Origin: Minisyncoccia bacterium
GTDB taxonomy: Bacteria; Patescibacteriota; Minisyncoccia; Phycocordibacterales; DATDWN01
Assembly: GCA_049297675.1 (NCBI GenBank)
Contig: JBAQUS010000004.1
Coordinates: forward strand, 13,188 to 77,187
Direction of reading: 5' to 3'
Length of the DNA stretch: 64,000 nucleotides
A program made the translations under genes and the position numbers. The notes beneath the pieces are model-generated. The model was not told the DNA's origin. It worked only from the letters and a program-made list of their open reading frames with translations, and searched no databases. Each line of letters begins with the position of its first letter. Position 1 is the first letter of the stretch. This document shows positions 44,258 to 59,424 of the stretch, piece by piece.

Positions 44258-44580
44258 TGAGTAACAGAAATCAAAGACTAAGTGAAATTCTAAGAGATTT
44301 AGGTGCCCGTTTTCTGCTTCTTAATGGAAACAAATCCTCGCTTTTAACCGTGACAAAATTGGAATTAACAAGGGATGGAAAAAATGCTACTATTTTCTTT
44401 ACGGTTTTTCCAAATAGTTTTGAAAAAACTGCTCTTGAGTTTGCCAAGAGAAAAAGAAGTGATTTTAGAGAATTCGTTAAGGAAAATTCAAAACTAGGAC
44501 ACCTCCCCCAGTTTGATTTTGAAATTGATCTAGGAGAGAAAAACCGTCAAAAAATTGACGGATTATTAAATGAAAAATGA
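44257..44580 (+). CDS. rbfA: Ribosome-binding factor A
   Basis: RLSEILRDLGARFLLL...LTVTKLELTRDGKNATIFF. The ATGA overlap with infB couples the two genes. The gene ends in TGA. Confidence 0.75.
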   Translation: MSNRNQRLSEILRDLGARFLLLNGNKSSLLTVTKLELTRDGKNATIFFTVFPNSFEKTALEFAKRKRSDFREFVKENSKLGHLPQFDFEIDLGEKNRQKIDGLLNEK

Positions 44581-44650
44581 CCTAGTCGCCAAGTGGTAAG
44601 GCAAAGCTCTGCAAAAGCTTTATACGGCGGTTCGATTCCGCCCTAGGTCT
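44579..44650 (+). tRNA. tRNA-Cys (anticodon GCA)
   Basis: Hand fold: GACCTAG/CTAGGTC acceptor, AAGCT-CTGCAAA-AGCTT anticodon arm, GGCGG-TTCGATT-CCGCC T arm. It starts inside the rbfA stop codon. Confidence 0.85.
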
Positions 44651-44719
44651 CCCTAAAACATTTACACAGTAAGTGTTTGGGTGAACAATTCATCCAGAGA
44701 GTTGTTGTAACCAAATTTT

Positions 44720-44801
44720 GCTCGGGTGGCGGAACTGGTATACGCGTTCGACTTAAAATCGAATCCCGAAAGGGGTATGGGTTCGATTCCCATCCCGAGC
44801 A
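44720..44801 (+). tRNA. tRNA-Leu (anticodon TAA)
   Basis: GCTCGGG/CCCGAGC acceptor, TTCGA-CTTAAAA-TCGAA anticodon arm, long variable arm, ATGGG-TTCGATT-CCCAT T arm. Confidence 0.85.
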
Positions 44802-44850
44802 CAAAATTGAAATAAACTAAAATTAATGTTATAAATTTAAAGTAAAATTT

Positions 44851-44923
44851 GCGCCTATAGCTCAGCTGGTAGAGCAGATCCCTCTTAAGGATAAGGTCCC
44901 AGGTTCGATCCCTGGTGGGCGCA
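44851..44923 (+). tRNA. tRNA-Lys (anticodon CTT)
   Basis: GCGCCTA/TGGGCGC acceptor, GCTC-AGCTGGTA-GAGC D arm, CTCTTAA anticodon loop, CCAGG-TTCGATC-CCTGG T arm. Confidence 0.85.
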
Positions 44924-45119
44924 CAAGCCGAAATAATCTAAACTGCTTTAGATTATTTCGGACTTGTGCGCAACCAGAATATACCTTTAGGTGATTCTGG
45001 TTGAGGTTTCGGGCTTGTGCGTTATTAAAACATGTTTACTAAATAGTTTGAATCGTGGTTTCAAATTTGTGTGTGAAAGTAAGATAGCAATATAATGTTT
45101 TAGTTTCAAGTTAACAATT

Positions 45120-45203
45120 GGGCGAGTGGCGTAACAGTAGCCGCGCCAGTCTTAGGAACTGGTCCCGTAAGGGGTGGAGGTGCGATTCCTCTCTCGCCCA
45201 CCA
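45120..45203 (+). tRNA. tRNA-Leu (anticodon TAG), atypical D and T loops, CCA encoded
   Basis: GGGCGAG/CTCGCCC acceptor, perfect CCAGT-CTTAGGA-ACTGG anticodon arm, long variable arm. The D loop lacks GG, and the T loop is TGCGATT rather than TTCGA.. . Confidence 0.6.
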
Positions 45204-45490
45204 ATAAGGAACTAAAGGGTTCTGAATGCGAACCCAAGCGGAACGCCCGAAGGGCGTGCCAAGGATTTTCGCCTGATTCTGCAAGAGAATTCGGGAATTT
45301 TGGTGTGCAAGCGTGCAAGGTTTTTTCGTCGAGACGCAGGTTCGAGCCAAAGATTTCTTTGGCATAGACCTTTTTAGTAAAAAGATCTGAATCAGAAGCG
45401 ATTCTGTCCAATGATTCCGCGTCTTTTAGCCATTGTTGGAAAGGTGCGAGCCAATCATTCTACTTGTGTGAAAGAGAGGTCATTTCTCAT

Positions 45491-46277
45491 CTGTCAAACA
45501 TCCGATGTTTGACAGTAAGTTAGGGGTAGATTATTACCGAAAATGTTAAAACTTTTTATACTTCAAAAGTTTTGGTGTCAGCTTTTACCCCGCTATTTTT
45601 TACAAATTTATAATATTCATATTTATCCTCAAATTGGTCTAATACTACTTCCCTTTTTAATATTTCCTTCCAACGATTTTCTGTAACGTAATCCTGATAG
45701 CTAGACCACTCATATTTTTCTGGATTATTACTCCAATGTGAAAGCTCTTTTGGATTTAAATGAACATACGCAGATAAATGTAGTAGTTGTTCATTACTTT
45801 CAACATGAACTGCTTTATACGGACCTTCAAAAAGATGCCCCGAAATTTTATATTTAGTATTGAAGTATTTTGTATACGAGTTAAGTACACGTTGCATATA
45901 TTTCCCAGTTCCACCTTCTTCATTTTCACGAACTATTAGATGAAAATGGTTAGTCATCATCGCAAAAGAAACTAGGTCAACGTATCTTTTCGAAATTATC
46001 TTTTCGTAATCATCACTGTTAATGTCAAACATCCGATGTTTGACATAATTCGAGATCATTCTTGAAACTTGAGGAAAAATAACATTTGCTTGAAAGTATA
46101 AAATGAGAAATAAAAATCTAATTCTATCTCTATCATCCTTGAAGATGATTTTCTTCCCAACTCCCCGATTATATATATGATAGTGTTCCCCAATTTCAAT
46201 ATTATCTCTTCTCATAACCTCTCATCCTACATGGACAACTATCCATCTGTCAAACATCGGATGTTTGACAGATGGAT
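45491..46277 (-). mobile_element. RAYT/IS200-like unit 1: Y1 gene bracketed by copies of the palindrome tgtcaaacatc-N-gatgtttgaca
   Basis: Palindromes at 45491-45515 (12+c+12), 46022-46046 (inside the CDS) and 46241-46277 (18+g+18). The centre base is complemented in the third copy. Confidence 0.6.
45556..46215 (-). CDS. HUH/Y1 tyrosine transposase-like protein (REP-associated, IS200-like domain)
   Basis: HYHIYNRGVGK, HUH motif TNHFHLIV and the catalytic-Tyr region LSAYVHLNP. Confidence 0.75.
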   Translation of the reverse strand: MRRDNIEIGEHYHIYNRGVGKKIIFKDDRDRIRFLFLILYFQANVIFPQVSRMISNYVKHRMFDINSDDYEKIISKRYVDLVSFAMMTNHFHLIVRENEEGGTGKYMQRVLNSYTKYFNTKYKISGHLFEGPYKAVHVESNEQLLHLSAYVHLNPKELSHWSNNPEKYEWSSYQDYVTENRWKEILKREVVLDQFEDKYEYYKFVKNSGVKADTKTFEV

Positions 46278-46367
46278 AAGATCGATTATTAGAAAGGCTT
46301 GTGATTTTTTTAAAATCGATCTTGTTGCAAATAACGGCTTAATGGTGGGGGTTTTTTGACGACACCC

Positions 46368-46401
46368 TTGACTTGACTTTTGGATTTAATTGTGATAGAA
46401 T
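46368..46401 (+). promoter_or_regulatory. Consensus sigma70-type promoter of the GC-rich cassette
   Basis: TTGACTTGACT (overlapping -35 boxes), then a 17-nt spacer, then TAGAAT (46396-46401) preceded by tgtga. Confidence 0.5.
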
Positions 46402-46499
46402 GGTGAGCAGAACGGGAGCGGCAATTCTTGCCCCTTTCGTCGCTCCTTGACACTCTAGTTTTTAGTTTACAAGCGCTTAAATGCGCAGAAGAGGTTAGC

Positions 46500-48038
46500 A
46501 TGTTTTACACTATCGCAATTTCCGTTCTCGTTGCAGTGACAATCTCGGTCCTGATCGTCGTCGGTTGGCTTATCTTCCGTGTCGTACAGACACGGAGGAG
46601 GACACCAGTCATTCATGATTGGGCGCGGAGGGATGATAGTCGCGAGACGACACCCTCCCCGACTCCTACCACGACATCCGGAATTGATGTCGACCTCACA
46701 CTGAATCCTCCCCGCCATACTCCGAAAGGAAATAGCGGAAGAGAACCCGAACCGTTGCCTCCATGTAAATGGAAAAAAGGCACGTTTCGTATCATCTACT
46801 GGGCGGTAATAATTCCGCTCGGAATGATATCTGTCTTCGTTCTGGAGTGGGGTATCCTATCGGGTCTGCCACTCACGTGGAATACCCTGTTGGAATTCAA
46901 CGCAACTTCAGTTGGGCTGACCCTTGTTGTTCTCTGGGTAGCCTACTTCTTGGACACATTCAAGATCGTCAAGTTCAATGAACTCGGCGGTCGTGTGGTA
47001 CTTGGTAGTTTCGAGTCCTACTCTGACGGGATAACTCTCGCACCGAGATGGATTACCGATCTGGTCAAGGTAACGAGAGCAACTGAAGAACTTGATCAAC
47101 CTCACAGTGACCCGTCAAAAATTTTCTGGGGAGACCTAAGCAAACTTCCAGACGGGAAAATCCCGGACGGTATGGTACTACCAATTCGTGTGCCATTCCT
47201 CCAGAGGTCAAGCGATGAAGACTTCGAAGTTCGCTGGCCACTTGAAACAGGAGAGGTCAAAACCAGAATTACAAAGGGCTATGACCTTCTTAGTGCAACG
47301 GATGCTCCTGTCGAGTATTCGATCGGAATCAGATTCATCGACATCCAACGTGTTATCGTTCGACTCAGGTCACTCAAAGCAGCCTACGACTTGGCAACAG
47401 ACTATGCAGAGACGCTCATAACGGGCACTTTGCAGAAAATGTCCGCTGCCGAAGCCCAAGTACTGAAACAGGAAATTTCAGTACATCTTGAGGAACAGAC
47501 GGACAACCGTGTTTTCCAATCGTACGGCTTCGTGATCGACTTCGTGACTTTGAAGTCAATCGGGACTTCGCACACAATCGCGGAATCGCGAGCGCAGGCG
47601 GCAGCAGCTGTCAACCTTGCGAATAAAACGGTTAGAGACGCAAAAGCTACAGCTAAGGCAACCGAACTTCAAGGTGCTTCTGTGGCTGGAGCTGAATTGG
47701 CACTACTCAACGCGAGGTCAGTAGGACTACGCAACATCGTCGACGCTGCGACTTCACGGTCAGGGGGAGTTGAACTCGCCAAAGCTATGGAAGCGGCACG
47801 CGCTATTCAGTTTGGCGCAGATTCGACAGTTGTTGTCCCAGGTGGAAACACTGGGGACGGTCTCGGACTCTTTGGCGCAGCGGTCGGTACAGCAATTAGT
47901 GCTTCGGCCGCACTTGGGAGAAAACCAGCTGGTGAAAAAGCTCTAACAGAGACCCAACCAGCACAACCAACAACTACTACAACACCCCCTGCACGTGGCG
48001 ACAGACGTGGCCATAAGAAAGGGGGTAAGAGGAGTTAG
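46500..48038 (+). CDS. Multi-TM SPFH/band-7 (prohibitin/HflK-like) domain protein with Ala-rich coiled C-terminus and basic P/T tail
   Basis: Start set at MFYTIAIS (GAGG 5 nt upstream). FKIVKFNELGGRVVLGSF ... YSIGIRFIDIQRVI ... YGFVIDFVTLKSIGTSHTIAESRAQAAAA fits the SPFH pattern. The DNA is GC-rich. Confidence 0.6.
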   Translation: MFYTIAISVLVAVTISVLIVVGWLIFRVVQTRRRTPVIHDWARRDDSRETTPSPTPTTTSGIDVDLTLNPPRHTPKGNSGREPEPLPPCKWKKGTFRIIYWAVIIPLGMISVFVLEWGILSGLPLTWNTLLEFNATSVGLTLVVLWVAYFLDTFKIVKFNELGGRVVLGSFESYSDGITLAPRWITDLVKVTRATEELDQPHSDPSKIFWGDLSKLPDGKIPDGMVLPIRVPFLQRSSDEDFEVRWPLETGEVKTRITKGYDLLSATDAPVEYSIGIRFIDIQRVIVRLRSLKAAYDLATDYAETLITGTLQKMSAAEAQVLKQEISVHLEEQTDNRVFQSYGFVIDFVTLKSIGTSHTIAESRAQAAAAVNLANKTVRDAKATAKATELQGASVAGAELALLNARSVGLRNIVDAATSRSGGVELAKAMEAARAIQFGADSTVVVPGGNTGDGLGLFGAAVGTAISASAALGRKPAGEKALTETQPAQPTTTTTPPARGDRRGHKKGGKRS

Positions 48039-48040
48039 TC

Positions 48041-49396
48041 ATGCCTATCGTCGCAATCGTTATCGTACTCCTCTTTCTCGTCTTCGGACGAAGGAAAGGA
48101 AACGATAGCAAATACATTCGAGAGTCAGAGGTCGTTGATACCAAGCCAAATGGTAAAACAGAGACGGAAAAACACACTCTGTGGTGGCACGTCGGCCACT
48201 ACAAACTCGTGTGGCTACAGCACTGGAGGAGGTCAACAACCCTCCGTGTCTCCGCCGGACTGCTTGCTTTCGGGCTGGGAGTCTGGATCTTCCCTCTAAC
48301 GAGGGAATGGTGGAGTTCGCAGTGGGTTAGCTTCGGCCTTTACCTAATTGCCGCTCTGGCCATTATCTGCCTTGGGTTCATGTTGGGCCCGGCGCAGAAA
48401 GTGCCGTTCGAGTACAGGCTCCGGCCTTTATTGCTCATCATTGGAATTGCGATCGCAGTCTACGGACTCGGTGCGAACACCAAGTTCGGTCAGAGCACCT
48501 GGTCGTGGATCGCCTCTCACTTCGGGAGAACAGATGGAAACATCGGTCTAACTCCAGAGGAGACAGCTGACCTACCGGACGGGTTCGTCGAGAGCGACAA
48601 TCCGAACCACTGGTCAAACCACGTCACCGATGAAAATCGTGATGTGGTCAACATGGTCCGGGCTGCCGTCCAGAGCGAACTTGTCCCAACCCATTGGGAC
48701 CTCGCCATGCAGATCTGCGGTATGGAATCGGCATGGTTTCGTCAGTTCGATGAGGACGGTAATGTTCTCAGAAACGTCAAAAACAATGACGGGTCAATCG
48801 ACTACGGAGTCTGTCAGATCAACTCCATATGGATGAAAAAGTCCAAGGAGTTGGGAGATGGTTTCCGGATCGACGGGCCGGCTGACGAAAACATTCGAAT
48901 GGCCATGTGGATCTGGACGAATCCAGAAACACGTGGGCCACGCGAGTGGACCGGTACGTACAACACAGCTCTTGCTGTTGTCCGCAATGCGCGGACAACG
49001 CCAGAGACTGTGAACGCACGTCGAACTCCAGAGAGGTCACCGGCTGAACAGGAGACTGTTCAGGCTGGGATCGCACTGGTCTCACAAACTGAGCCAATTC
49101 ACCAGCAACGCAACCCACAAAGAGAGGTGTCTGTCACAGCCATGTTTCCAGGATGGGTCACCGACAAGTCCTCCATGACCTGCGACCTCGAAGAGGACGC
49201 AGAAATCGAGGCGGTCGGTGAGCCTGGAATATTTTACTGGAGTGACACAAACTTCAGTACGAACATCCTAAAGCCTGGAGAAACTGCTTCACTTGCTGGA
49301 TTCAAATGCGTTGCAGTCAGATACTTTTCCCCAACGTTTGGGGGAAAACTGACTGAGGGTCAGAGCCCTTACGCAATCGTGAGACGATACAAATAA
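48041..49396 (+). CDS. Membrane-anchored lytic transglycosylase (SLT domain) with a C-terminal domain of unknown function
   Basis: Four to five N-terminal TMs. ICGMESAWFRQFDEDGNV ... DYGVCQINSIW contains the SLT catalytic E-S and the Q-I-N motif. AGAGGAG SD. The ATG lies 2 nt after the upstream stop. Confidence 0.7.
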   Translation: MPIVAIVIVLLFLVFGRRKGNDSKYIRESEVVDTKPNGKTETEKHTLWWHVGHYKLVWLQHWRRSTTLRVSAGLLAFGLGVWIFPLTREWWSSQWVSFGLYLIAALAIICLGFMLGPAQKVPFEYRLRPLLLIIGIAIAVYGLGANTKFGQSTWSWIASHFGRTDGNIGLTPEETADLPDGFVESDNPNHWSNHVTDENRDVVNMVRAAVQSELVPTHWDLAMQICGMESAWFRQFDEDGNVLRNVKNNDGSIDYGVCQINSIWMKKSKELGDGFRIDGPADENIRMAMWIWTNPETRGPREWTGTYNTALAVVRNARTTPETVNARRTPERSPAEQETVQAGIALVSQTEPIHQQRNPQREVSVTAMFPGWVTDKSSMTCDLEEDAEIEAVGEPGIFYWSDTNFSTNILKPGETASLAGFKCVAVRYFSPTFGGKLTEGQSPYAIVRRYK

Positions 49397-49430
49397 ACTA
49401 GAGTTAGAGAGGAGTACACATGTTCGCATG

Positions 49431-49466
49431 AGGCCGTTACCCGATAAGGGAACGGCCTCTTTTTAT
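49431..49466 (+). terminator. Rho-independent terminator of the GC-rich cassette
   Basis: aggccgtt...aacggcct stem followed by ctttttat. Confidence 0.6.
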
Positions 49467-49492
49467 GCATGATGATATATAAAATTTCTCTA

Positions 49493-49525
49493 CAGAAAAC
49501 CGCTCAAGTTGTGAGCGGTTTTCTG
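49493..49525. terminator. Bidirectional 14-bp hairpin cagaaaaccgctca-agttg-tgagcggttttctg
   Basis: Perfect arms, verified. It lies between the convergent cassette and the pilin operon. Confidence 0.6.
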
Positions 49526-49536
49526 TGACTAACTTG

Positions 49537-49827
49537 TTAATAGTTTCGTATTATAGCGTTGACTGCTGCGTTATTAGGTGCCACCCCGAAAGTGTTAAGG
49601 ACGAAGTGAACCAACCCATAAACCGAAAACATTATGACCATTCCCACTATTCCCCAGACCATGGAATCTCTGGACTCCTTTCTGGTATTTCCTTTATCGT
49701 CTGCATCAGAAGATAAAAACTTGATGGCCCCCCATACAAAGTACAGAAAGGCTATAGCAAACATGAGGAAAATCAATGGATTCAGTATAACGTTTGCTAC
49801 ATTACGTAGAAAAGGAACAATAGTCAT
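49537..49827 (-). CDS. VirB2/TrbC-like mini-pilin paralogue a (no signal peptide; possibly truncated)
   Basis: Core YFVWGAIKFLSSDADDKGNTRKESRDSMVWGIVGMV (TM-loop-TM). It lacks the leader present in the other six copies. Confidence 0.5.
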   Translation of the reverse strand: MTIVPFLRNVANVILNPLIFLMFAIAFLYFVWGAIKFLSSDADDKGNTRKESRDSMVWGIVGMVIMFSVYGLVHFVLNTFGVAPNNAAVNAIIRNY

Positions 49828-49852
49828 GTACTAGTTTCGTTAACTAGACTGA

Positions 49853-50206
49853 TTACAGACCTGTAACTGTTGGAACTGTACCAGTTGTGATGTTTTGAAC
49901 ACCAAATGTAGATTGTAACCATGCAACCAATCCGTAGATTGAGATCATGACTGCTATTGCAATCACACCCCAAATCATCTGGTTTCTACCTGCCTCCTGT
50001 GCCTTAGGATCCCCAGCTGAACGTAGGAATGTAACCAAGCCCCAGAAGAAGAACACTATCGCTAGACCGAAAACTATAGGGATAAGTGTTCTAACTGTTG
50101 TTGCAATGAAAGTAAGAAGTGCTTGCAAACCTGTTAAGTTTGGAGTCTGGGCGAAAGCCAAGACTGGAGCAAGAAAAGATCCTACTGAAATGACAATTTT
50201 TTTCAT
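49853..50206 (-). CDS. VirB2/TrbC-like mini-pilin paralogue b
   Basis: Leader ...PVLAFAQ. Core FFFWGLVTFLRSAGDPKAQEAGRNQMIWGVIAIAVM. Confidence 0.6.
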   Translation of the reverse strand: MKKIVISVGSFLAPVLAFAQTPNLTGLQALLTFIATTVRTLIPIVFGLAIVFFFWGLVTFLRSAGDPKAQEAGRNQMIWGVIAIAVMISIYGLVAWLQSTFGVQNITTGTVPTVTGL

Positions 50207-50311
50207 TTTTTTGTTAATATTACGATTAATAATGCTATTATAGTACTTTTTAAAAATAATGCAAGTCCTCGGTCAAATAGACTCTGTGGATTAGTTTACT
50301 TCCAGTTATAC

Positions 50312-50689
50312 TTAGTTTGGACTAAAACATGTTTCAAAGTTAGTACAAGACTCAATACTAAAGACATTTCCAAGAAATGCCACTATTCCAAATAATGATA
50401 GAATGATGAACATGCCTATAATACCCCATAACATCCTTTGTTTTCCTTCCTCACGGGATTTAGAATCACCAGAATTTAGTACAAATTGTGCCACACCCCA
50501 TATAAAGAAAAGCAAAGCAACACTGCCTAGGATTGGTACTAATATATCAACTAAATCCTTAAATTCCTGAGCAAAAGTCTGAATAGTTTGAGCCGAAAGA
50601 ATGGTTGGAAAAATAGACCAAGACAAAGACACTACAAAAAATATTCTGCTGGTGTAACCATGAGAAAATATAAATTTTCTTACCATCAA
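50312..50689 (-). CDS. VirB2/TrbC-like mini-pilin paralogue c
   Basis: Leader ...ILSAQ. Core FFIWGVAQFVLNSGDSKSREEGKQRMLWGIIGMF. The C-tail has a Cys pair. Confidence 0.6.
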   Translation of the reverse strand: MMVRKFIFSHGYTSRIFFVVSLSWSIFPTILSAQTIQTFAQEFKDLVDILVPILGSVALLFFIWGVAQFVLNSGDSKSREEGKQRMLWGIIGMFIILSLFGIVAFLGNVFSIESCTNFETCFSPN

Positions 50690-50711
50690 AATAGTTAATG
50701 TTACAAAATTA

Positions 50712-51071
50712 TTATAAAGAAGTACAGATCATTGACCCGATTGGACACCCTGTTTGTGGTATCCCTAGAGCAGTATTTATAAATGCCACTATTCCGAATA
50801 TAGACATTATTACGAACATACCAACTACACCCCATATCATCCTTTGTTTTCCCTCTTCTCTCAGTTTGGTATCGCCAGCATTTAGAATAAATGTAGCTAC
50901 ACCCCACATAAAGAACATAAAAGCCAAACCGAAGACGATGGGTATAAGAAGTCGAACTATATTTCCGAATTCAGTCACTAGTGTTCTTACCACGGCTAGA
51001 CTCTGGGCAAAAATAAAAACAGGAAATAAAAGTTGTGGTGCATAAATTAAAAATTTTAGATTTTTCTTCAT
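50712..51071 (-). CDS. VirB2/TrbC-like mini-pilin paralogue d
   Basis: Leader ...FIFAQ. Core FFMWGVATFILNAGDTKLREEGKQRMIWGVVGMF. The C-tail has a Cys pair. Closest to paralogue c at the DNA level. Confidence 0.6.
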   Translation of the reverse strand: MKKNLKFLIYAPQLLFPVFIFAQSLAVVRTLVTEFGNIVRLLIPIVFGLAFMFFMWGVATFILNAGDTKLREEGKQRMIWGVVGMFVIMSIFGIVAFINTALGIPQTGCPIGSMICTSL

Positions 51072-51140
51072 ATTTTTTATTTATTTCTATTTATTACTAT
51101 CAGTTATGCATTATAATACATACAACACAAAAGTACAAGG

Positions 51141-51524
51141 CTAAAATCTAATGAAAACAAAGGCAGGATCAGCATCAGTAGAGCCATTCAACCCTACAGC
51201 GTTTATAACAACACCAATGATTGCTCTTACAGATAGTAGGACAAATAAAGCAATTGTTCCCCAAAGCATATATTTTCTTCCATTTTCTATTTCCGTTTTA
51301 TTTCCAGATCGAATAAAAAATTTAGAAAGACCCCAAATAAATACTAAAACAGCTAAAGAAAGAAAGGCTGGCAGGATTGTGTTGTAAATAAGTTCTCCTG
51401 TGGTGAAGGCGGCATCTCCAAATGTGCCACCCGGAGGTATAAGTTGGGCATAAGCAATAATCGGAAAAACACTGACAACAAGGTTTGAAATGAACCTGTA
51501 GTGCTTTAAAAAAAAAGTTTTCAT
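51141..51524 (-). CDS. VirB2/TrbC-like mini-pilin paralogue e
   Basis: Leader ...IIAYAQ. Core VFIWGLSKFFIRSGNKTEIENGRKYMLWGTIALF. Confidence 0.55.
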   Translation of the reverse strand: MKTFFLKHYRFISNLVVSVFPIIAYAQLIPPGGTFGDAAFTTGELIYNTILPAFLSLAVLVFIWGLSKFFIRSGNKTEIENGRKYMLWGTIALFVLLSVRAIIGVVINAVGLNGSTDADPAFVFIRF

Positions 51525-51536
51525 TATTGATAAATT

Positions 51537-51899
51537 TTAACCAACAGTGATTAGTTGACTAACCGTATTTCTAACCAGCTCTGATATGGCCACAGCTCCG
51601 AGGAGAATTCCTCCGCCTATGAGAGCCCAGAGAAGTCTCTGTTTTGCCTCGCCAAGTTTTTTCTCATTACCTTGGGCAGTTACAAAAGTAAAGCCTGCAT
51701 AAATAATGTACATTACAACCACCACGGCTCCTATAGGCAAAACCACGTTGTTAAGGAGTGCAGTTAAAATATCAATGAGATTGCTTCCTGCTTTGGTGGC
51801 CGGATTGGTAATGGTAATATTTTGAGCGAACAAAACTACTGGCAAAATAATATTAGCGAGTATCAGAAGAATTTTTGTGTATTTTTTATATATTTTCAT
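51537..51899 (-). CDS. VirB2/TrbC-like mini-pilin paralogue f
   Basis: Leader ...VVLFAQ. Core IYAGFTFVTAQGNEKKLGEAKQRLLWALIGGG. Confidence 0.55.
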   Translation of the reverse strand: MKIYKKYTKILLILANIILPVVLFAQNITITNPATKAGSNLIDILTALLNNVVLPIGAVVVVMYIIYAGFTFVTAQGNEKKLGEAKQRLLWALIGGGILLGAVAISELVRNTVSQLITVG

Positions 51900-51903
51900 A
51901 TTA

Positions 51904-52314
51904 TTAACCTAGAAAAGTTGGAATATTATCATCTAATAATGCTGTGGTGATAAGTCTAACTAACACCCAGGCGATTATTATAATAGCAATACCCTGTACA
52001 ACTTTAAGAAGCATACCCGCGGCTTTTGCCCGCTCCGAAGCACTCTCTCCACCCATCATAAACCTAAAGCCAGCCCAAGCGATAACTATAACAGAAAAAC
52101 CTAGGGCAAACTTAGTTCCTTCGTTTGTCACTCGTCTTACGGCTCTTATCAGGTCATCAAATGTACACTCTCCTGCTATCCCACCAACTCCGGGACACTC
52201 GTAAACAAACTGGGCATGGCTTACTAGTGGTGTAAAAAGAAAAAGAAAAACAAGAAACAGGAGAATTTTTGATGCCAAATTATTTAAAAATGTACTTCTC
52301 ATTTTGTTAAACAT
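51904..52314 (-). CDS. VirB2/TrbC-like mini-pilin paralogue g (most divergent)
   Basis: Leader ...LVSHAQ. The mature N-terminus has CPGVGGIAGEC. Core IAWAGFRFMMGGESASERAKAAGMLLKVVQGIAII. Its start overlaps the stop of the upstream gene. Confidence 0.5.
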   Translation of the reverse strand: MFNKMRSTFLNNLASKILLFLVFLFLFTPLVSHAQFVYECPGVGGIAGECTFDDLIRAVRRVTNEGTKFALGFSVIVIAWAGFRFMMGGESASERAKAAGMLLKVVQGIAIIIIAWVLVRLITTALLDDNIPTFLG

Positions 52315-53603
52315 TATGATTTGATTAGAGCAGTCAGTTCTGTTTCCGCTCTGTTTAAGGCATCAGATGCTCTAGACCTTCCACTAGTTATGCTCTCAAT
52401 CATATCACGAAACAGATTTGAAGTTGCCTGTGGTTCAGGATCAATCCACGACCTGGAGATTAAGGCAGAATCATAGAATACTTGCATGTGAGCCTCTGGA
52501 GGCTTCACAGAAAGCATGTCTCTTCTTACAGGAGGTAGGTTTGTAATGCCACCTATTCCCTTTATAGCTTCGACCTCTGTCAGAGCGTTTAGGGCTATAA
52601 AGGAGGCCTGGATATTTTTGGATTGCTTTACAATGGATATACCGTAGAGATGTCCGAAAACTACTTTCTTTTTGCTATCTCTTATTTGTGGAACCGAAGT
52701 GACACCGTAATTTAGATTTGGATTTTTTTGTTGAATACCAACTAGCTCACTAGCAAAACCAAAATAAATAGCCAAATTTCCGGAGAGAAAGAAGTTGGAT
52801 GAAGATGGAAGGGACCTATTCCAGGAATATGAGACAAGGTTTGGATTAGAAAATTGGATGTAAAAATCTGTTGCTGACTGGCTCGGAGTCCTAGGATATC
52901 CGAACTGAAGGTTAAGCACTGTATCAAGCCCATTTTCCTCCCTCTGTATTATTGGTGTTCCAGCTTGGAGCATGAGCATTATGAGTAACTCCTTGGCACT
53001 TGTGATATTTCTCCATTCACCGAAAGCTATAGTTGATTGAGAAATATTGGCCTGACCGTCTTTTTTGGTGATCTTTGGAACCAAGTCTGGAATCTCGTCC
53101 CAGTATTTAGGAGGGGACGCAATAAAGTTGCTGGAGAATAAGTCTCTATTCCAATACATAACCATGGGATCAATAATGAATGGCAAAGCTAATATGCCTT
53201 CTGGAGTAAGAAACAATTCCCCTTCTTCTATAAACCTGTCCTTGAAATCCCTCTCTGGATAAAATTCCGATGGTATTGGATAAAGTTTATTTCTATTTTT
53301 GTAAACCAAATCCTCTCTAAGAATAACTATGTCTGGCCCTCTACCTTCTGCCAGAGCCTCGACAAAGTCTCTATCAAAATCTGATGGGTCCTTTCTGACA
53401 TACATCACTCTTATGTTTTTATTTCCAGAAAGTGACGAAGCTATATAAGCATTTGTAAATGCATCGTCCGAAATAGTTCCCCATGCGACTAGACCAGCAG
53501 ATACATTTGCTGTACCGGTATTTTTACTCAAGGCAAAAACCATAATACCTGCAACTATGGCCACAGAGAAGACGGCTATGACAGCTATTTTAAACGTACT
53601 CAT
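52314..53603 (-). CDS. Membrane-anchored extracellular solute-binding-fold protein (orphan; no permease or ATPase nearby)
   Basis: N-terminal TM, then ...PDIVILREDL...ALPFIIDPMVMYWNRDLF...PPKYWDEIPDL..., an SBP family-1-like pattern. Confidence 0.55.
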   Translation of the reverse strand: MSTFKIAVIAVFSVAIVAGIMVFALSKNTGTANVSAGLVAWGTISDDAFTNAYIASSLSGNKNIRVMYVRKDPSDFDRDFVEALAEGRGPDIVILREDLVYKNRNKLYPIPSEFYPERDFKDRFIEEGELFLTPEGILALPFIIDPMVMYWNRDLFSSNFIASPPKYWDEIPDLVPKITKKDGQANISQSTIAFGEWRNITSAKELLIMLMLQAGTPIIQREENGLDTVLNLQFGYPRTPSQSATDFYIQFSNPNLVSYSWNRSLPSSSNFFLSGNLAIYFGFASELVGIQQKNPNLNYGVTSVPQIRDSKKKVVFGHLYGISIVKQSKNIQASFIALNALTEVEAIKGIGGITNLPPVRRDMLSVKPPEAHMQVFYDSALISRSWIDPEPQATSNLFRDMIESITSGRSRASDALNRAETELTALIKS

Positions 53604-53640
53604 ATTCGCTGATTATAACAAGAAATCATTTTTTCTAAAA

Positions 53641-54168
53641 TTACATCTTCTTAAAGATTAATCCGTAGTGATGTGCTCCGGCGGAAATTTCCCTGTCTAT
53701 ACTAAAGCCCTGCTTTTCAAAAAGCTCTTTGGCTTTTGGTTTTTTAACAACATCGATCGGTTTTGGACCAATTCCACCGAATGAATCTGACCAGTCTATT
53801 ACCAATACCCTTCCCCCGGGTTTTAAAATTCTTTTGGCCTCTTTTATTGCCCCGACTTTATCATCTAGCTGAAAAAGAAGATTGCAAATAAAAACCAGAT
53901 CAACAGAAGAATCCCTAAGTTTTGCTCCATTTGGCTTTTCGACATTACCCCATACTACTTCTATGTTATAAAGGCCTTCTTTTGTTGAGTTATTTTTCAA
54001 TCTGGTCAGTAGCTCTTTATCTACGTCAATAGCGTAAACCCTACCAGTTGAAATGAGCGCCCTTGAAGCAGCCATGGAGTAATGTCCCGAGCCAGAACCA
54101 AAATCTGCAATATCCATCCCGGCCTGTATTCCACACTGCTCTATGTTTTTTATTGGATCGGAGAACAT
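53641..54168 (-). CDS. Class I SAM-dependent methyltransferase
   Basis: Motif I IADFGSGSGHYS and post-I/II LKPGGRVLVIDW. Confidence 0.75.
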   Translation of the reverse strand: MFSDPIKNIEQCGIQAGMDIADFGSGSGHYSMAASRALISTGRVYAIDVDKELLTRLKNNSTKEGLYNIEVVWGNVEKPNGAKLRDSSVDLVFICNLLFQLDDKVGAIKEAKRILKPGGRVLVIDWSDSFGGIGPKPIDVVKKPKAKELFEKQGFSIDREISAGAHHYGLIFKKM

Positions 54169-54341
54169 TGGCTAGTTATGAAGTTGAAAGTAAAAAGTTA
54201 GAAGTAATACAAACAGTATACTAACAAAATTACGTGCTATTTATTATACAACCAAAAAACCAAATCAACACTATAGTTGTTCACAAATTAGAGTTTAAAT
54301 TTTGTTAATTTTATATAAGGACTCAATATAAAAAACCTGTT

Positions 54342-55076
54342 TTACTAGGGTAACCCTAGTAATTACTAGTAACTATCTTTATATTCTAACCAATCAGTTA
54401 TATTATCATTAAAATCAAAGATACTTGAAAAATACTCAGGGAAATTAGTTTTGTCTAAAATCATACCCGCTTCCCTCTTTTGTCCGACATAATCTAAATA
54501 ACTAGAACAATCATAATTCGATAGAAATTTTTTAGCTTTACTAATGTTTTTTATTCCAGATTCTTTCCAGTCATATTCAATTAATTTAACTGGATTAAGA
54601 TGAATGTAAGAAAATAAATATTTCAAATATTCATCAGAGTCAGCATGTTCTGCTTTATATGTACCCTGAAACAACGAACCCACTCTATCATTTAATTTAT
54701 TAAAGTAGGTAGAATAGCCCGTAGTCAATTTTTCCATAAACATAGCTGTACCGCCCTCAACAATTTCTCTAACAAGAATATGAAAATGATTTGGCATTAA
54801 AACCCATGCTCCTATTGCAACGAGTTGCTCGCCCCTGTTAATATCTTTCAATGGTAAGTCTATTGTTGTGCTGTACCTATAAGGAAGAGTATTGTTTGCA
54901 AGATATAAGAGTCTAATAAATCTCTTATAATCATTCTGTGAAATAAAAATATCGCGCTTTTCAACTCCTCGATTATATATATGGTAAAACTCGCCTTCAG
55001 ATATGACTATTTTTCTTTGCATAGAAGCACTATATACTAACAACTCTCATCTTACTAGGGTAACCCTAGTAAGATG
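54342..55076 (-). mobile_element. RAYT/IS200-like unit 2: Y1 gene bracketed by the palindrome ttactagggt-a-accctagtaa
   Basis: 21-nt copy at 54342-54362 and an extended 29-nt copy (catcttactagggt a accctagtaagatg) at 55048-55076. Confidence 0.6.
54366..55022 (-). CDS. HUH/Y1 tyrosine transposase-like protein (second, divergent paralogue)
   Basis: FYHIYNRGVEK, HUH motif PNHFHILV and Tyr region LFSYIHLNP. Start moved to MQRKIVIS by analogy with paralogue 1. Confidence 0.75.
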   Translation of the reverse strand: MQRKIVISEGEFYHIYNRGVEKRDIFISQNDYKRFIRLLYLANNTLPYRYSTTIDLPLKDINRGEQLVAIGAWVLMPNHFHILVREIVEGGTAMFMEKLTTGYSTYFNKLNDRVGSLFQGTYKAEHADSDEYLKYLFSYIHLNPVKLIEYDWKESGIKNISKAKKFLSNYDCSSYLDYVGQKREAGMILDKTNFPEYFSSIFDFNDNITDWLEYKDSY

Positions 55077-55133
55077 AAATTTTGATACCATGAAGCCCTG
55101 AGACTTCATGGTCCCAGGGCTGTTACCTGCTTT

Positions 55134-55343
55134 TTATTCTTCCTTCTCAGGTTTTTGTGGTGTGAAAGTGACAGAACCTGGGAGTTGACCTGAGGCACGT
55201 CTTTGCTGACGCACGGCTTCTTTGTAAAGTAGACATTGACGGTCAGCCTCAGCAGCATCACCACGTTCCCGTGCTTCTGACGCTCTGCACATACGAGTGA
55301 GCCACTCTGGGTTTGGTTCTGGATCAGTACCACGATTCGCCAT
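55134..55343 (-). CDS. Hypothetical 69-aa helical protein; GC-rich orphan
   Basis: gaggaggttaatcATG start. Sequence MANRGTDPEPNPEWLTRMCRASEARERGDAAEADRQ... A hairpin gccctgaga...tcccagggc lies downstream. A hand-counted 60-nt line (55201-55260) is 50% G+C. Confidence 0.5.
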   Translation of the reverse strand: MANRGTDPEPNPEWLTRMCRASEARERGDAAEADRQCLLYKEAVRQQRRASGQLPGSVTFTPQKPEKEE

Positions 55344-55372
55344 GATTAACCTCCTCAAATTTTCCACATACA

Positions 55373-57841
55373 TTATAAACAAATAAGTGAGGCAATACTA
55401 TCTCCTTCGCGGAGTTTCATGATACGGACACCTTGAGTTTGACGACCAAGAACTGGGATTTCTTTGCTGTCCACTCGGATGACTTGTGATTTTTTAGATA
55501 TTGCCACAATTTCACCTTCAACACTAGCAAAAACTTTAGCGGAAATCAGACTACCTGTTTTTGGAGTAACTTTGGCAGTTTTTATTCCCGAGCCACCGCG
55601 GTTTTGGATTTTGTATTCATCAATATCTGTGCACTTGCCATACCCGTTTGCAGAGATGACCATAACGTTTGCATTGTCTAGATCATTTGGAACTGTCTCA
55701 GCAGAAATAATCTCATCACCCTTTTTTAGTTTAATAGCCCGCACTCCCATAGCGGTTCTTCCCATCTCACGAATATCTGATTCTTTGAAATGAATGGCCT
55801 GTCCCTTGCTTGTTACAACGATAACTGTATCTTTTTTTCTAGTAAATGAAGCTGAGATGAGTGCGTCACCGTCATCTAGCTTTATTGCAATAATACCCGA
55901 AATTCGTACATCGTGAAAACTAGCAGTGGCTACTTTTTTTACTGAGCCTTGTTTAGTAACCATCATTGTTGAAGACTCTTCGCCCTTAACTTTCTTTGGC
56001 ATTGGCAAAATAGAAGTGATTTTCTCACCTTCTGAAAGTGGTAAAAAGTTCATGATTGATTTCCCACGAGTAGCCCTGCGTCCCTCTGGAATGTCATACA
56101 TTTTTGTCTGATAAACTTTTCCTCTGTTAGTAAAGAAAAGCAAATCGGAGTGAGTAGAAGTTATGAGTAGATTTGTAACAAAGTCTTCTTCTTTTGTGTC
56201 CAGGTCAATCACCCCGACTCCCCCACGTTTTTGTTTTCTAAACTCATCTGGATTGGTTCGCTTTATGTATCCACCAGCGGTCAATACTAGCGCGTTTTCC
56301 TCATCAGGAACGAGATCTTCGACGGAAAGTACTTGTGCTCCACCCTTTATTATTTTTGTGCGCCTCTCGTCACCATATTTTTCCTTAATATCTTCCGACT
56401 CTTTTTTTATTATTAAAATAACTTTCTTTGGAGAGTTTAATATGGACTTTAGTTCCTCAATCATAATCTGCACTGCCTTGAGTTCATCCTCTATCTTCTT
56501 TCTCTCAAGTCCGGCCAAACGTGAAAGCTTCATTTCCAAAATAGCATTGGCTTGAATTGACGAGAATTTAAACTCTTTCATCAATCTCATGTGAGCCTCG
56601 GGAGTATCTTTGGAAGATTTGATGAGTTTAATAATGGCATCAATATGATCGAGTGCTTTTTTCAATCCCAAAAGAATATGCTCTCTTTCCAGTGCTTTTT
56701 TGAGATCAAACTCTGTTCGTCTTTTTATTACTGTTACTCTGTGAGAAATAAATTCCTCCAAAATATCTTTTAGGGAGACTGTCTCTGGTATCCCTTTTAC
56801 GAGACCAACCATATTGTAATGAAAAGTGTCTTCGAGTTGAGTATGTTTATATAAATAATTCAGAACTGTTTGAGGATGAGCTGTACCTTTTAACTCAATA
56901 ACTATTCTTATATCTTTTGCAGACTCATCACGAATGTCTTTTATTCCCTCGACTTTTTTCTCCTTGTGAAGATCAACTATTTTTAATATTAGGTCAGCCT
57001 TGTTTACTCTAAATGGTAGCGAAGTAATAACGATTTGATACTGTCCAGATTTTGTCTCAACAACTTCTGCCATACCACGCACAACTACACCACCTTTTCC
57101 TGAAGAATAAGCATGATGCATGTCCTTAGCTCCAAAAGCTATTGCTCCTATCGGAAAATCTGGACCTTTGACGAACTGCAGAAGATCCTCTGTTGTAGCA
57201 TCTTTATTATCTGCCAAATGGATAACCGCATCCATCACTTCGTTTAGGTTATGAGGCGGAATATTTGTTGCCATTCCAACGGCAATACCTAGTGTGCCGT
57301 TTAGAAGCAAGTTAGGTACAGCGGTTGGCAAAACTTTCGGCTCCTTTTTTGTGCCGTCGTAATTTGGCACAAAATCAACAGTTTCTTTTTCAATATCGTG
57401 CAGAAGTTCGGATGCCAATTTAGTCATTTTTGCCTCCGTATAACGCATGGCTGCCGCATTGTCTCCATCAATCGAACCAAAATTTCCCTGACCTAATATG
57501 AGAGGGTAACGCATAGTAAAATCCTGCGCCATCTTAACCATTGAATCATAAACTGCTACATCACCATGCGGGTGATAATTTCCCAAAACTTCTCCGACTA
57601 CCGCAGCAGATTTTCTGGATTTGGCACCAGATGTCAATCCGAGTTCTGACATAGCAAAAAGAATTCTCCTATGCACAGGTTTTAGTCCATCACGAACATC
57701 TGGTAATGCACGATCGGTAATAACAGACATTGCATAATCTATAAAAGATGTCTTCATCTCAGAAGTTATTTCCTGCGAGATAACATTTTTTACAGCTAAA
57801 GCCGAATTGGTCTCTTCTGGATTATTTTTTTTACCTGACAT
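55373..57841 (-). CDS. gyrA: DNA gyrase subunit A
   Basis: [10 protein letters not shown] active-site Tyr region, YHPHGD and C-terminal beta-pinwheel repeats. Confidence 0.95.
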
Positions 57842-57905
57842 TTAGGTGGTAAGTTAAATTAATCAGTGGATTATAGCACAACAAAAAGGCAAATTCAAAG
57901 CTTTT

Positions 57906-58274
57906 TTAATCGGAGGAAGGATTATTTTCTATTAGTAAATCTGAGGTACTAGAGGTATTTTTTGGAATATTTTCTGAATTGTTTTGAACGTAAGTCTCAG
58001 AACCAGACAAACCACCTAGAGAATTTTTAAAATTTGCCACCTCTCCTCCAAATGTCAAAAGGGATGAATAAACCAAATCAGAAAATGCCGATAAAGGACT
58101 TGGTTCACTATTTATGGCCTCAATGTCTCTTTTCTCTTGTTCCCTAAAACTGGGATATATAACAATTGCCCACATAAGCAAGATTATCCCAGAAAAAGTA
58201 ACAGCAATAAGTAAAGCAATTTTTTTTCTTATTTTATGGGGTTTTTCTCTTAATCTCTCAATGAGGTTGAGCAT
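57906..58274 (-). CDS. Hypothetical single-TM protein
   Basis: N-terminal basic stretch plus TM (IALLIAVTFSGIILLMWAIVIY). Confidence 0.4.
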   Translation of the reverse strand: MLNLIERLREKPHKIRKKIALLIAVTFSGIILLMWAIVIYPSFREQEKRDIEAINSEPSPLSAFSDLVYSSLLTFGGEVANFKNSLGGLSGSETYVQNNSENIPKNTSSTSDLLIENNPSSD

Positions 58275-58322
58275 TTAATAGTTATAAAGTTTAAAGTAGA
58301 AAGTTATAAAGTTGGTATTAAA

Positions 58323-58958
58323 TCAGATGGATTCGAGGACTAGTACGTCGCCTTCCTTGCCTTCTAGATCTTTTCTTTTGACAGTCAGTTTGTCGACAGG
58401 TTTTATTCCTTCCTCACCAGACTCCTTTAGAAATTTTTTCAATGAATCTTTTTCACCTACTTCCTCAAAATGACTAGGAATTATTATTTTTGGTTCAAAC
58501 TGCACAGCCACCTTGTGAGCTACAGCGGGATCTAAGACATCTCCACCACCTATTGGCACAAAAAGAATATCCACGCCGTCGATTCCCTCCTTTGTCTCAG
58601 AGGATAATTCCTTCTCTGAAAGTGCTCCAAGAAAACAAAGACTTATTCCCTCAAGTGAGACAGTATATATCGTGTTAATCCTTTCCTTGCCTCCGTAGTT
58701 GGACTTTGATAAAAAACCTTTTATGAAAACGCCAGAGACTTCATACTCACCCGGACCGTTTATAAGAAATGATTCCTTTTCTCCACGAGAAGTTGAGTCA
58801 GAGCCGTTGTGCTCCGGAGAATTGAGGGAAACAAGAGTAATGTCGCTTCCAAAACTCTTGCCTTTTATTTCGGAGTCCTTGGAAATTGGATTAACAGCAA
58901 TGGTGGTCTCACCAAAAGAAACCTTAAAAAAATCCGCTCCGTGGTATGTGATTATCAT
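58323..58958 (-). CDS. MBL-fold metal-dependent hydrolase (UPF0173-like)
   Basis: MIITYHGADFFKV start and later D/H-rich segments. The family call is moderate. Confidence 0.5.
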   Translation of the reverse strand: MIITYHGADFFKVSFGETTIAVNPISKDSEIKGKSFGSDITLVSLNSPEHNGSDSTSRGEKESFLINGPGEYEVSGVFIKGFLSKSNYGGKERINTIYTVSLEGISLCFLGALSEKELSSETKEGIDGVDILFVPIGGGDVLDPAVAHKVAVQFEPKIIIPSHFEEVGEKDSLKKFLKESGEEGIKPVDKLTVKRKDLEGKEGDVLVLESI

Positions 58959-59023
58959 AACGTTAGTCTAACAGAAAAATTTATTTTTTCAAACTGAGAA
59001 ATTTCAAAATTAAATTTCTTAAC

Positions 59024-59054
59024 AGGTACTTGGCGGTTTAACCGCCAAGTACCT
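59024..59054. repeat. Orphan 31-nt perfect palindrome aggtacttggcggtt-t-aaccgccaagtacct
   Basis: All 15 pairs verified. About 70 nt further on is cccctcgcttactcgctta (59124-59142). Confidence 0.55.
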
Positions 59055-59220
59055 AAGAATTTTGAAAGTTATTTATTTGACTACTCAGTTGTAGAAATCA
59101 GTCGTAGAAAATAAAGCGAGGACTCCCCTCGCTTACTCGCTTAAAATACTTAGAGAAACAGAAAACCCGCCGACCGATGCCGACGGGTTTCATAATCGTC
59201 GCTTGAGGTGATTTCCATTG

Positions 59221-59424
59221 TCAGTACGAATCGCTCATTGTTTTCCACCCGCAATATGTACAAGTTGAGTAGACAAACGTGTACATCTTGTCTTCAGTAT
59301 TACGTGCCTCCTGGCTAATCTTTCTAGAAAAGCACTCAGGGCACGACTTGATTTTGAGGGACGGGGGAACTCCAATCCCAAGACCCTTCGACAAATCTTC
59401 GATCAAATCTCTGACGATGCTCAT
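59221..59424 (-). CDS. Small zinc-ribbon protein (67 aa); GC-richer orphan
   Basis: gcggaggtttcaaccATG start at MSIVRDL. CPEC...(22 aa)...CTYC motif. Confidence 0.5.
   Translation of the reverse strand: MSIVRDLIEDLSKGLGIGVPPSLKIKSCPECFSRKISQEARNTEDKMYTFVYSTCTYCGWKTMSDSY

Follow-up and report, generated by a model that had tools for sequence, protein, structure and literature searches.

The 64,000-nucleotide stretch analyzed here, which we call the window, comes from a Minisyncoccia bacterium (assembly GCA_049297675.1, contig JBAQUS010000004.1, positions 13,188 to 77,187 of the forward strand) and carries at 46.37 to 49.47 kb a two-gene unit in which a gene for an SPFH/band-7 protein (gene 1) precedes a gene for a membrane-anchored protein with a lysozyme-like domain (gene 2). 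The unit is a resident operon and not a recent insertion, because it fills one and the same slot in all 12 related lineages examined, keeps its promoter, and lacks both repeats and mobile-element relatives. With modest confidence, we favor the view that it is a native, vertically retained, and very fast-evolving SPFH-glycosidase operon of the Minisyncoccia (ultra-small bacteria of the candidate phyla radiation/Patescibacteria) and that it serves a VirB2-like pilin apparatus.

In each of the 12 lineages, the SPFH gene is followed by the partner gene and then by a convergent array of five to eight pilin genes of the PF18895/TrbC type. Wherever the contig reaches that far, a gene for a solute-binding protein and then one for a methyltransferase follow in the same order. 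The lineages, all Minisyncoccia, are the window itself, L004, L005, L009, L010, L012, L013/L016, L014/L015, L018 (a "Candidatus Zambryskibacteria" metagenome-assembled genome), L019, L020, and L021. The two genes of the pair lie 2 nucleotides (nt) apart in the window and 37 nt apart in L005, and they overlap by 1 to 4 nt at ten other loci. The pair is therefore found beyond the window, always tail-to-tail with a pilin array, and the proposal in the initial annotation that it could be a module for a surface apparatus fits this constant adjacency.

In the window, the array consists of seven VirB2-like pilin genes (49537..52314, minus strand; 96 to 136 amino acids), convergent with the operon, which match the Pfam family T4SS_pilin (PF18895) with scores of 31.2 and 35.1 bits (cutoff, 26.6), next to weaker PF18895 and TrbC matches. 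Upstream of the pilins and co-directional with them are the genes for the methyltransferase (53641-54168, minus strand) and for a membrane-anchored solute-binding protein (52314-53603, minus strand; Pfam SBP_bac_1, E-value of 3e-14), the stop codon of the latter overlapping the start of the first pilin gene. Our data suggest that the methyltransferase, the solute-binding protein, and the seven pilins form one operon that links a solute-binding protein to VirB2-like pilins.

Could the adjacency to the pilins be no more than inherited gene order? The pair might be a housekeeping envelope module, in which an SPFH scaffold works with an autolysin in the growth, division, or turnover of the cell's own wall. 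We regard this as unlikely, though well worth weighing. It would sit well with two units that are convergent and separately terminated, with the generally conserved gene order of the clade (initiation factor 2 [IF-2] and RbfA upstream; the solute-binding protein, the methyltransferase, and GyrA downstream), and with the diverse membrane clients that SPFH proteins organize elsewhere (PMC2636767; PDB matches). However, the gene upstream of the pair is of at least eight kinds (Y1 transposase, enolase, RNase H-like, LAGLIDADG, RbfA, a glycosyltransferase cluster, and unknown proteins), whereas the downstream neighbor is always the pilin array.

Gene 1 (46500..48038, plus strand; 512 amino acids) belongs to the SPFH/band-7 proteins according to its relatives, profiles, and an AlphaFold2 (AF2) model. 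By itself it showed no significant family in Pfam (none at an E-value of ≤0.1), PHROGs, NCBIfam, or PADLOC, and a word-indexed protein search with the single sequence or with a 3-sequence profile returned only the self-match. A phmmer search against 1.84 billion representative proteins recovered 92 relatives, 26 of them at an E-value of ≤1e−10, and linked gene 1 to the aligned relatives at E-values of 1e−50 to 1e−10. When gene 1 was aligned with its top 40 matches, 39 of the 41 sequences matched Pfam Band_7 (PF01145; best E-value of 2e−17), and in the PDB the family profile matched stomatin, QmcA, and HflK/C with E-values of about 1e−18. When four relatives of gene 1 were aligned and the alignment was used to scan GTDB genomes, 3 loci were recovered. 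Neither window protein reaches a Pfam threshold by itself; the domain calls for both genes are based on relatives and profiles.

The AF2 model of gene 1, built from the 41-sequence alignment, has a predicted local distance difference test score (pLDDT) of 77.6, which exceeds 90 over residues 150 to 420. It consists of a transmembrane (TM) helix at residues 2 to 34 (also seen in hydropathy), a disordered linker rich in proline and threonine (residues 35 to 94), a hairpin of membrane helices (residues 95 to 120 and 135 to 153; model and hydropathy), an alpha/beta SPFH domain at residues ~154 to 357 (46959-47570) with strands between residues 154 and 354, long coiled-coil helices (residues 358 to 418 and 423 to 442), and, after residue 442, a disordered, basic, P/T-rich tail. 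Foldseek matched the model to HflC, HflK, stomatin, prohibitin, erlin, QmcA, and flotillin with a probability of 1.00 and E-values of 5e−11 to 1e−6. From this domain layout and these matches, gene 1 is predicted to be a divergent SPFH protein with a ring-forming architecture, and the coiled coils suggest that it would assemble into a ring or cage on the membrane. The SPFH identity given in the initial annotation is thus borne out by the Band_7 relatives, the PDB profile matches, and the model; its count of about four TM helices in gene 1 is not, as three are predicted.

Gene 2 (48041..49396, plus strand; 451 amino acids) combines four predicted TM helices, where four to five had been proposed, with a lysozyme-like domain and a beta-rich C terminus. 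Hydropathy and the helices of the model place its membrane anchor at residues 1 to 145 (48041..48475, plus strand): TM1 spans residues 2 to 16 and is followed by a basic loop of about 45 residues and by TM2 to TM4 at residues 66 to 83, 96 to 114, and 123 to 145. W49, W91, and P122 are kept across 10 members of the gene 2 family. By the positive-inside rule, the domains after the anchor are predicted to face the outside and the SPFH domain of gene 1 the cytoplasm.

The putative catalytic domain covers residues ~176 to 320 (48566..49000, plus strand), with Glu229 encoded at 48725-27 and Asp254 at 48800-02, and contains the motifs HWSNHVTDENR, DLAMQIxxES, DGSxDYGVxQIN, and GPREWxxTYNTA in this order. 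It is the sole part of gene 2 that is conserved between lineages (53 to 65% by tblastn). Close homologues are rare, about four among 5.8 billion proteins; in the four closest, Glu229, Ser230, Asp254, and Gln259 are invariant, and Asp254 is kept in at least 90% of the 10 family members. Gene 2 alone had no significant family in Pfam, PHROGs, NCBIfam, or PADLOC, and no relative was confirmed when GTDB genomes, IMG/VR, and JGI metagenomes were scanned with gene 2 patterns. Among the orthologues, P0004 scored 24.3 with Pfam SLT (PF01464; GH23), above the gathering score of 21.3, and P0003 remained below the cutoffs with Lys (PF00062; 17.6), SLT (15.9), and SLT_3 (15.0). Against the PDB, profiles of the gene 2 family matched C-type lysozymes at an E-value of 1.8e−5 with only ~70 residues aligned. 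In the profile alignments, Glu229-Ser230 corresponds to Glu35-Ser36 of canine milk lysozyme and Asp254 to its Asp53; hhalign against residues 43 to 63 of hen lysozyme gave a probability of 93% and 57% identity, with Asp254 on Asp52. These alignments point to a lysozyme-like domain, whose activity could be that of a muramidase or of a lytic transglycosylase. Hence, the initial annotation was right in placing a domain of the lysozyme-like/SLT kind behind a polytopic anchor, but the label SLT is too specific, since C-type lysozyme has its Glu35 and Asp52 at the positions aligned with Glu229 and Asp254.

The remainder of gene 2 (residues 321 to 451 plus the stop codon; 49001..49396, plus strand) comprises a linker and a variable, beta-rich C-terminal domain with strands between residues 378 and 448. 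This domain shows no similarity between lineages by tblastn. The AF2 model of gene 2, built from 4 sequences, has an overall pLDDT of 41 (30 to 45 across the catalytic domain) and contains seven strands in the C-terminal domain at a pLDDT of only 54 to 64. Foldseek on this low-confidence model returned only cupin-like matches, which at E-values of ≥0.009 are not reliable. In two lineages, the SPFH partner is considerably shorter (L019, 9557-10360, 267 amino acids; L020, 9275-9880, 201 amino acids) and is devoid of the lysozyme-like domain. These two partners retain membrane helices and a beta-rich C terminus, a layout that resembles that of NfeD, and are encoded in genomes with a background G+C content of 0.51 to 0.53. 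The loss of the catalytic domain in some lineages also argues against a housekeeping autolysin.

The unit stands out by its composition. Its G+C content is 51 to 53%, compared with 37% in its neighbors; in 300-nt windows, the value rises from 0.30 to 0.33 (45.5 to 46.3 kb) to 0.48 to 0.56 (46.45 to 49.3 kb) and falls to 0.33 to 0.43 beyond, and at the 1-kb scale only 47 to 49 kb exceeds 0.50 within the 64-kb window. The G+C content is 0.512 for gene 1 (0.58, 0.48, and 0.48 at codon positions 1, 2, and 3) and 0.530 for gene 2 (0.54, 0.45, and 0.60). At the third position (GC3), gene 1 (0.480, z = 3.5) and gene 2 (0.597, z = 5.8) lie above the 51 other open reading frames (ORFs) of the window (mean of 0.298, standard deviation of 0.052, maximum of 0.454). 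The deviation extends to the amino acids, with a share of the GARP residues of 0.30 in gene 1 and 0.26 in gene 2 versus 0.20 elsewhere in the window and a share of the FYMINK residues of 0.20 and 0.24 versus 0.34, and to codon use, as illustrated by ATC (0.60 in the pair, 0.14 in the other ORFs), GTC (0.46, 0.15), TTA (0.01, 0.20), and AGA (0.21, 0.54). The sharp jump in G+C content that the initial annotation had derived from hand counts is reproduced by these statistics. Codon bias due to high expression is an unlikely source of the high GC3, because G-ending and CGN codons rise as well and IF-2 and the pilins stay low in GC3.

Such a pattern is what one would expect of a G+C-rich foreign cassette, be it an islet or a phage or plasmid remnant, that was recently acquired next to the pilin operon in this genome. 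This explanation can call on the shift at all three codon positions and the foreign-looking codon use, on boundaries at which the unit has its own promoter and terminator, and on the tRNA genes and the Y1 transposase just upstream. We nevertheless consider it very improbable. The same slot is occupied in all 12 lineages with a conserved promoter, which largely refutes a one-off insertion, and relatives were found solely in these same syntenic loci. There are no direct or inverted repeats that touch or bracket 46.37 to 49.47 kb, palindromes of its own delimit the Y1 transposase and leave the operon outside, and no phage, plasmid, viral-contig, or defense-system relatives were detected with PHROGs, viral contigs, PADLOC, and tblastn against phage and plasmid records. 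Of the features typical of genomic islands, the unit has atypical composition only, and not variable presence, flanking repeats, or mobile-element relatives. The words "foreign" and "inserted" in the initial annotation, and its alternative of a phage- or plasmid-derived remnant, are therefore not upheld.

Nor is the unit an artifact of assembly, which the initial annotation had considered. The window protein sequences are present on seven contigs. L001 (Logan assembly of SRR28011830) is 100% identical to window positions 44897-59396 and crosses both junctions. L002 (a second GenBank metagenome-assembled genome, GCA_049296155.1, contig JBAQRY010000020.1) and L003 (SRR28012410) are also 100% identical, but do not span both junctions, because L002 ends at window position 49419, after gene 2, and L003 begins at 46749, inside gene 1. 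These three identical assemblies from other samples, L001 foremost, rule out a chimera. The contig L002 stops 23 nt past gene 2, at the boundary between G+C-rich and A+T-rich DNA, which suggests that assembly breaks at the end of gene 2 due to the change in composition or the repeated pilin genes. A diversity-generating retroelement, phase variation, and repeat-mediated mobility were considered as well and rejected, as there is no repeat at the unit and the assemblies of the three other samples are identical.

Comparison of the window with L004 revealed how unevenly the locus changes. The solute-binding protein is 84% identical between the two and the pilins are 50 to 95% identical, whereas gene 2 reaches 43% overall and 61% in its catalytic core; for the anchor and C terminus of gene 2 and for the whole of gene 1, similarity is undetectable. 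Judged by these identities, evolution is much more rapid in the operon than in its flanks, and a drop from 84% to 43% or to undetectable similarity would be unexpected for housekeeping enzymes. L004 and the more distant L005 have one SPFH type in common (29% identity, E-value of 1e−27), and the window shares the other type with L009, L010, L012, L013, and L015. Because of this grouping, the gene 1 tree is discordant with the flanks, a point that a recent acquisition would also account for.

The G+C excess itself is recurrent. In all 12 lineages, the pair exceeds the mean of its neighbors, by 0.04 to 0.19, most strongly in the window, L004, L005, L009, L012, and L015 and only slightly where the background is 0.43 to 0.53. 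The flanks of the window and L004 are 84% identical in amino acids but 74% identical in nucleotides, so that synonymous sites are near saturation, and DNA acquired in one old event should therefore have ameliorated. Our leading guess is that the excess arises as relatives of differing G+C content repeatedly exchange alleles or recombine; relatives with a background of 51 to 53% and the same locus exist (L019 and L020). A candidate alternative is a locus-specific force that maintains the excess, such as selective pressure on codon use or, at a recombination hot spot, GC-biased conversion.

The operon has its own expression signals, and those described in the initial annotation (promoter, both Shine-Dalgarno sites, 2-nt gap, and terminator) were all found where it had put them. 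The sigma-70-type promoter (46368..46401, plus strand) consists of TTGACT at 46373-46378, a 17-nt spacer, and a TG-extended TAGAAT at 46396-46401; a second TTGACT at 46368-46373 overlaps the first. With 10 of 12 consensus matches, the site at 46373-46401 shares the top score in 45.4 to 50.4 kb with two minus-strand sites and is the only one of the three with a TG extension. The element TTGACT-N16-18-(TG)ATA(G/A)AAT precedes the orthologous gene at nine loci, namely, the window, L004, L005, L012, L014, L015 (the last two counted separately), L018, L020, and L021.

Between the promoter and gene 1 lies a 5′ leader of ~98 nt (46402..46499, plus strand) with a G+C-rich hairpin (GGAGCGG...CGTCGCTCC) and the Shine-Dalgarno sequence GAGG at 46491-94, 5 nt 5′ of the ATG at 46500. 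The leader is 79% identical to L004 4197-4307, whereas gene 1 cannot be aligned between the two. Such leaders of the SPFH gene are conserved, measure 75 to 100 nt, and contain a G+C-rich hairpin that differs in sequence in each lineage and a GAAAGGA Shine-Dalgarno sequence; when the leaders of 6 lineages (window, L004, L005, L012, L014, and L018) were aligned, they had CAGAAC, the hairpin, and a TTCCTTGA motif in common. RNAalifold on this alignment gave 10 pairs, 3 of them with compensatory (double) changes, which amounts to weak support for the structure, and the leader has no match in Rfam. Since TCCTT in the leader is complementary to AAGGA, it may mask the ribosome-binding site. The annotated starts of the SPFH proteins of L014 (6388), L015 (270), and L009 (142) lie ~18 nt past the conserved −10 box and read the conserved leader as protein (...QERHxPLPFLxTTLER...). 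The true starts are probably internal Met codons (MEIETV..., MSYFEA...), and the database proteins would therefore bear a spurious N-terminal extension of ~45 residues.

Gene 1 ends with TAG at 48036-38, 2 nt before gene 2, whose Shine-Dalgarno sequence AAGAGGAG (48027-34) is located 6 nt 5′ of the ATG at 48041; gene 2 is probably translationally coupled to gene 1. The operon ends at an intrinsic terminator (49430..49466, plus strand), a hairpin with 13-bp arms (49430-49459) followed by TTTTTAT, which has a folding free energy (dG) of −25.4 kcal/mol (z = −6.0; 0 of 200 shuffles fold as well) and was overlooked by a simple terminator scanner because the hairpin has an internal mismatch. A second, terminator-like hairpin with a weak T-run faces the pilin operon (49491..49527, minus strand; dG of −24.9 kcal/mol, z = −6.4).

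Other features of the region were recorded along the way. The 25-nt palindrome CTGTCAAACATCCGATGTTTGACAG flanks the Y1/IS200-like transposase gene (45556-46215, minus strand) on either side (45491-45515 and 46247-46271), and a degenerate third copy of it lies inside the gene at 46022-46046, where none is expected by chance. A paralogue with 38% identity is located beyond the methyltransferase gene (54366-55043), and L014, L015, and L016 have Y1 transposase genes at equivalent relative positions. These genes look like positionally conserved REP-associated (RAYT-like) genes and not like active insertion sequence copies. Four clustered tRNA genes (Cys-GCA, Leu-TAA, Lys-CTT, and Leu-TAG) lie upstream of the operon in 44579-45450, and the ~250 nt after them (45204-45450) have a G+C content of 0.49, lack an Rfam match, and contain no convincing ORF. 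L004 has the tRNA cluster upstream, too (278-622), at a distance from the operon of ~3.7 kb, which other genes occupy. Over the whole window, Rfam detected only tRNAs. Two pairs of dispersed, intergenic direct repeats of 66 to 80 nt with 83 to 86% identity (25962-26041/63919-63998 and 12941-13006/33913-33978), the latter consisting of a hairpin plus T-run adjoining tRNA genes, are unrelated to the operon.

How might the two proteins work together? We hypothesize that the SPFH protein oligomerizes on the cytoplasmic face of the membrane and that its ring would fence the four-helix anchor of the glycosidase into a membrane patch, by analogy to HflK/C-FtsH and QmcA-YbbJ. The cutting of wall material could in this way be localized or limited to discrete sites, at which the glycosidase would open peptidoglycan, either the cell's own or that of the host at the contact site, for the pilin or a type IV secretion system (T4SS)-like apparatus, a role akin to that of VirB1.

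Several observations weigh against a native operon that serves the pilins. Neither window protein clears a curated family threshold alone, and the catalytic and C-terminal folds of gene 2 are deduced from sequence, the pLDDT of its model being 41. L018, a distant member, shows no evident catalytic Glu; together with the partners that do not have a catalytic domain (L019 and L020), this implies that wall cutting is not the pair's universal function. The link to the pilins consists of conserved adjacency only, between units that are convergent and not co-transcribed, and virB4, virD4, and virB6 are absent among the ten large ORFs of the window that were scanned with Pfam, all of which are housekeeping genes. 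With the SPFH domain predicted inside and the enzyme outside, any control would have to run through the membrane helices. Finally, the native-operon view leaves the G+C excess unexplained.

A further possibility is that the glycosidase and its variable C terminus act on the wall of the host, as a weapon or adhesin, and that divergence and allele exchange reflect adaptation to the host. Patescibacteria live as epibionts, and gene 2 diverges so strongly outside its catalytic core that the C-terminal domain is unrecognizable between lineages, as such a function would lead one to expect. In addition, a survey of T4SSs in Patescibacteria cites the finding that "Ca. Southlakia epibionticum" needs virB4-adjacent lysozyme/peptidase homologues for epibiotic growth (PMC12102498). 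We think a host-directed function decidedly unlikely, though, since an enzyme that is held by four membrane helices and has only ~300 residues outside would hardly reach the wall of another cell. No secretion or cleavage signal was identified in gene 2, either.

In its organization, the pair is reminiscent of the SPFH-NfeD pairs (QmcA-YbbJ, FloT-YuaF, and PH1511-PH1510) and of HflK/C-FtsH, in which an SPFH coiled-coil protein is likewise encoded together with a polytopic partner, and the partner combines an enzyme domain with a C-terminal domain of the all-beta type. NfeD proteins have three hydrophobic stretches together with an all-beta domain that is soluble and are sometimes fused to a ClpP-type protease (PMC2636767). 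The resemblance of gene 2 to NfeD concerns the overall layout only and is clearest in L019 and L020. Gene 2 is not an NfeD protein by sequence: 10 members of the family gave no match to PF01957 at an E-value of ≤1, and the weak model matches are cupin-like and not OB-fold. The systems also differ in the enzyme, a protease there and a peptidoglycan glycosidase here, and in topology, as the soluble domains of the partner are predicted here on the membrane side opposite the SPFH domain. We found no description of an SPFH protein paired with a lytic transglycosylase in one operon in the literature searched, in agreement with the initial annotation, which knew of no such pairing.

The second comparison is to the VirB1-type glycosidases (VirB1, P19, and EtgA and, in monoderms, PrgK, TraG, and TcpG). 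They too have a lysozyme-like/SLT domain with a conserved Glu-Ser, are encoded beside genes for VirB2-like pilins, are membrane-anchored in the monoderm systems, and are expected to open the wall locally. EtgA has a conserved Glu and an Asp equivalent to Asp52 of lysozyme, a "hybrid" active site of unsettled chemistry (PMC10880428), and gene 2 shares this type of Glu plus Asp at the Asp52 position. Gene 2 differs in its anchor of four helices instead of a signal peptide or a single helix, in having no CHAP/NlpC-P60 or M23 second domain, in its position convergent to the pilin genes and outside their operon (with no virB4 among the ten ORFs mentioned above), in its constant association with an SPFH protein, and in a sequence so divergent that standard profiles miss it. 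C-type (GH22) lysozymes provide the best sequence matches among solved structures, with ESxFxxQ and DGSxDYGxFQIN motifs that align with Glu35 and Asp52; unlike them, gene 2 is bacterial and membrane-anchored and does not have the lysozyme disulfide pattern, and its orthologue scores better with Pfam SLT. The survey of Patescibacteria described arrays of 2 to 11 divergent VirB2-like pilin genes (PMC12102498), into which the seven-gene array of the window fits. According to the same survey, most VirB2-bearing genomes have no recognizable VirB1, other glycosidases may substitute for it, and SPFH/Band_7 has 0 occurrences (PMC12102498).

One may go a step further and regard the pair as an unrecognized SPFH-client system, in which the ring gates a membrane-anchored muramidase that is the "missing VirB1" of the VirB2-pilin apparatus in Minisyncoccia and in which an NfeD-like partner gained a lysozyme domain where long NfeDs have a ClpP-type protease; adaptation to the host would have driven either the exchange of cassettes or, at a recombination hot spot, GC-biased conversion, which would have kept the operon persistently G+C-rich and hypervariable amid A+T-rich, streamlined genomes. 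This extended scenario is doubtful, although we would not discard it.

In summary, our work describes an operon that can look foreign in every compositional test and yet be an old, syntenic resident, which is a warning for programs that search for genomic islands, and the G+C excess of the pair in all 12 lineages is an evolutionary puzzle worth explaining. A peptidoglycan glycosidase would join the short list of SPFH-associated clients, which includes FtsH and the NfeD proteases, and the pairing with an SPFH protein suggests a way for a cell with a wall-less margin to confine a dangerous enzyme. The building and use of T4SS-like pili are central to the epibiotic lifestyle of Patescibacteria, and the operon is a testable candidate for a VirB1-like wall opener, missed by standard profiles, in one large clade of these bacteria.

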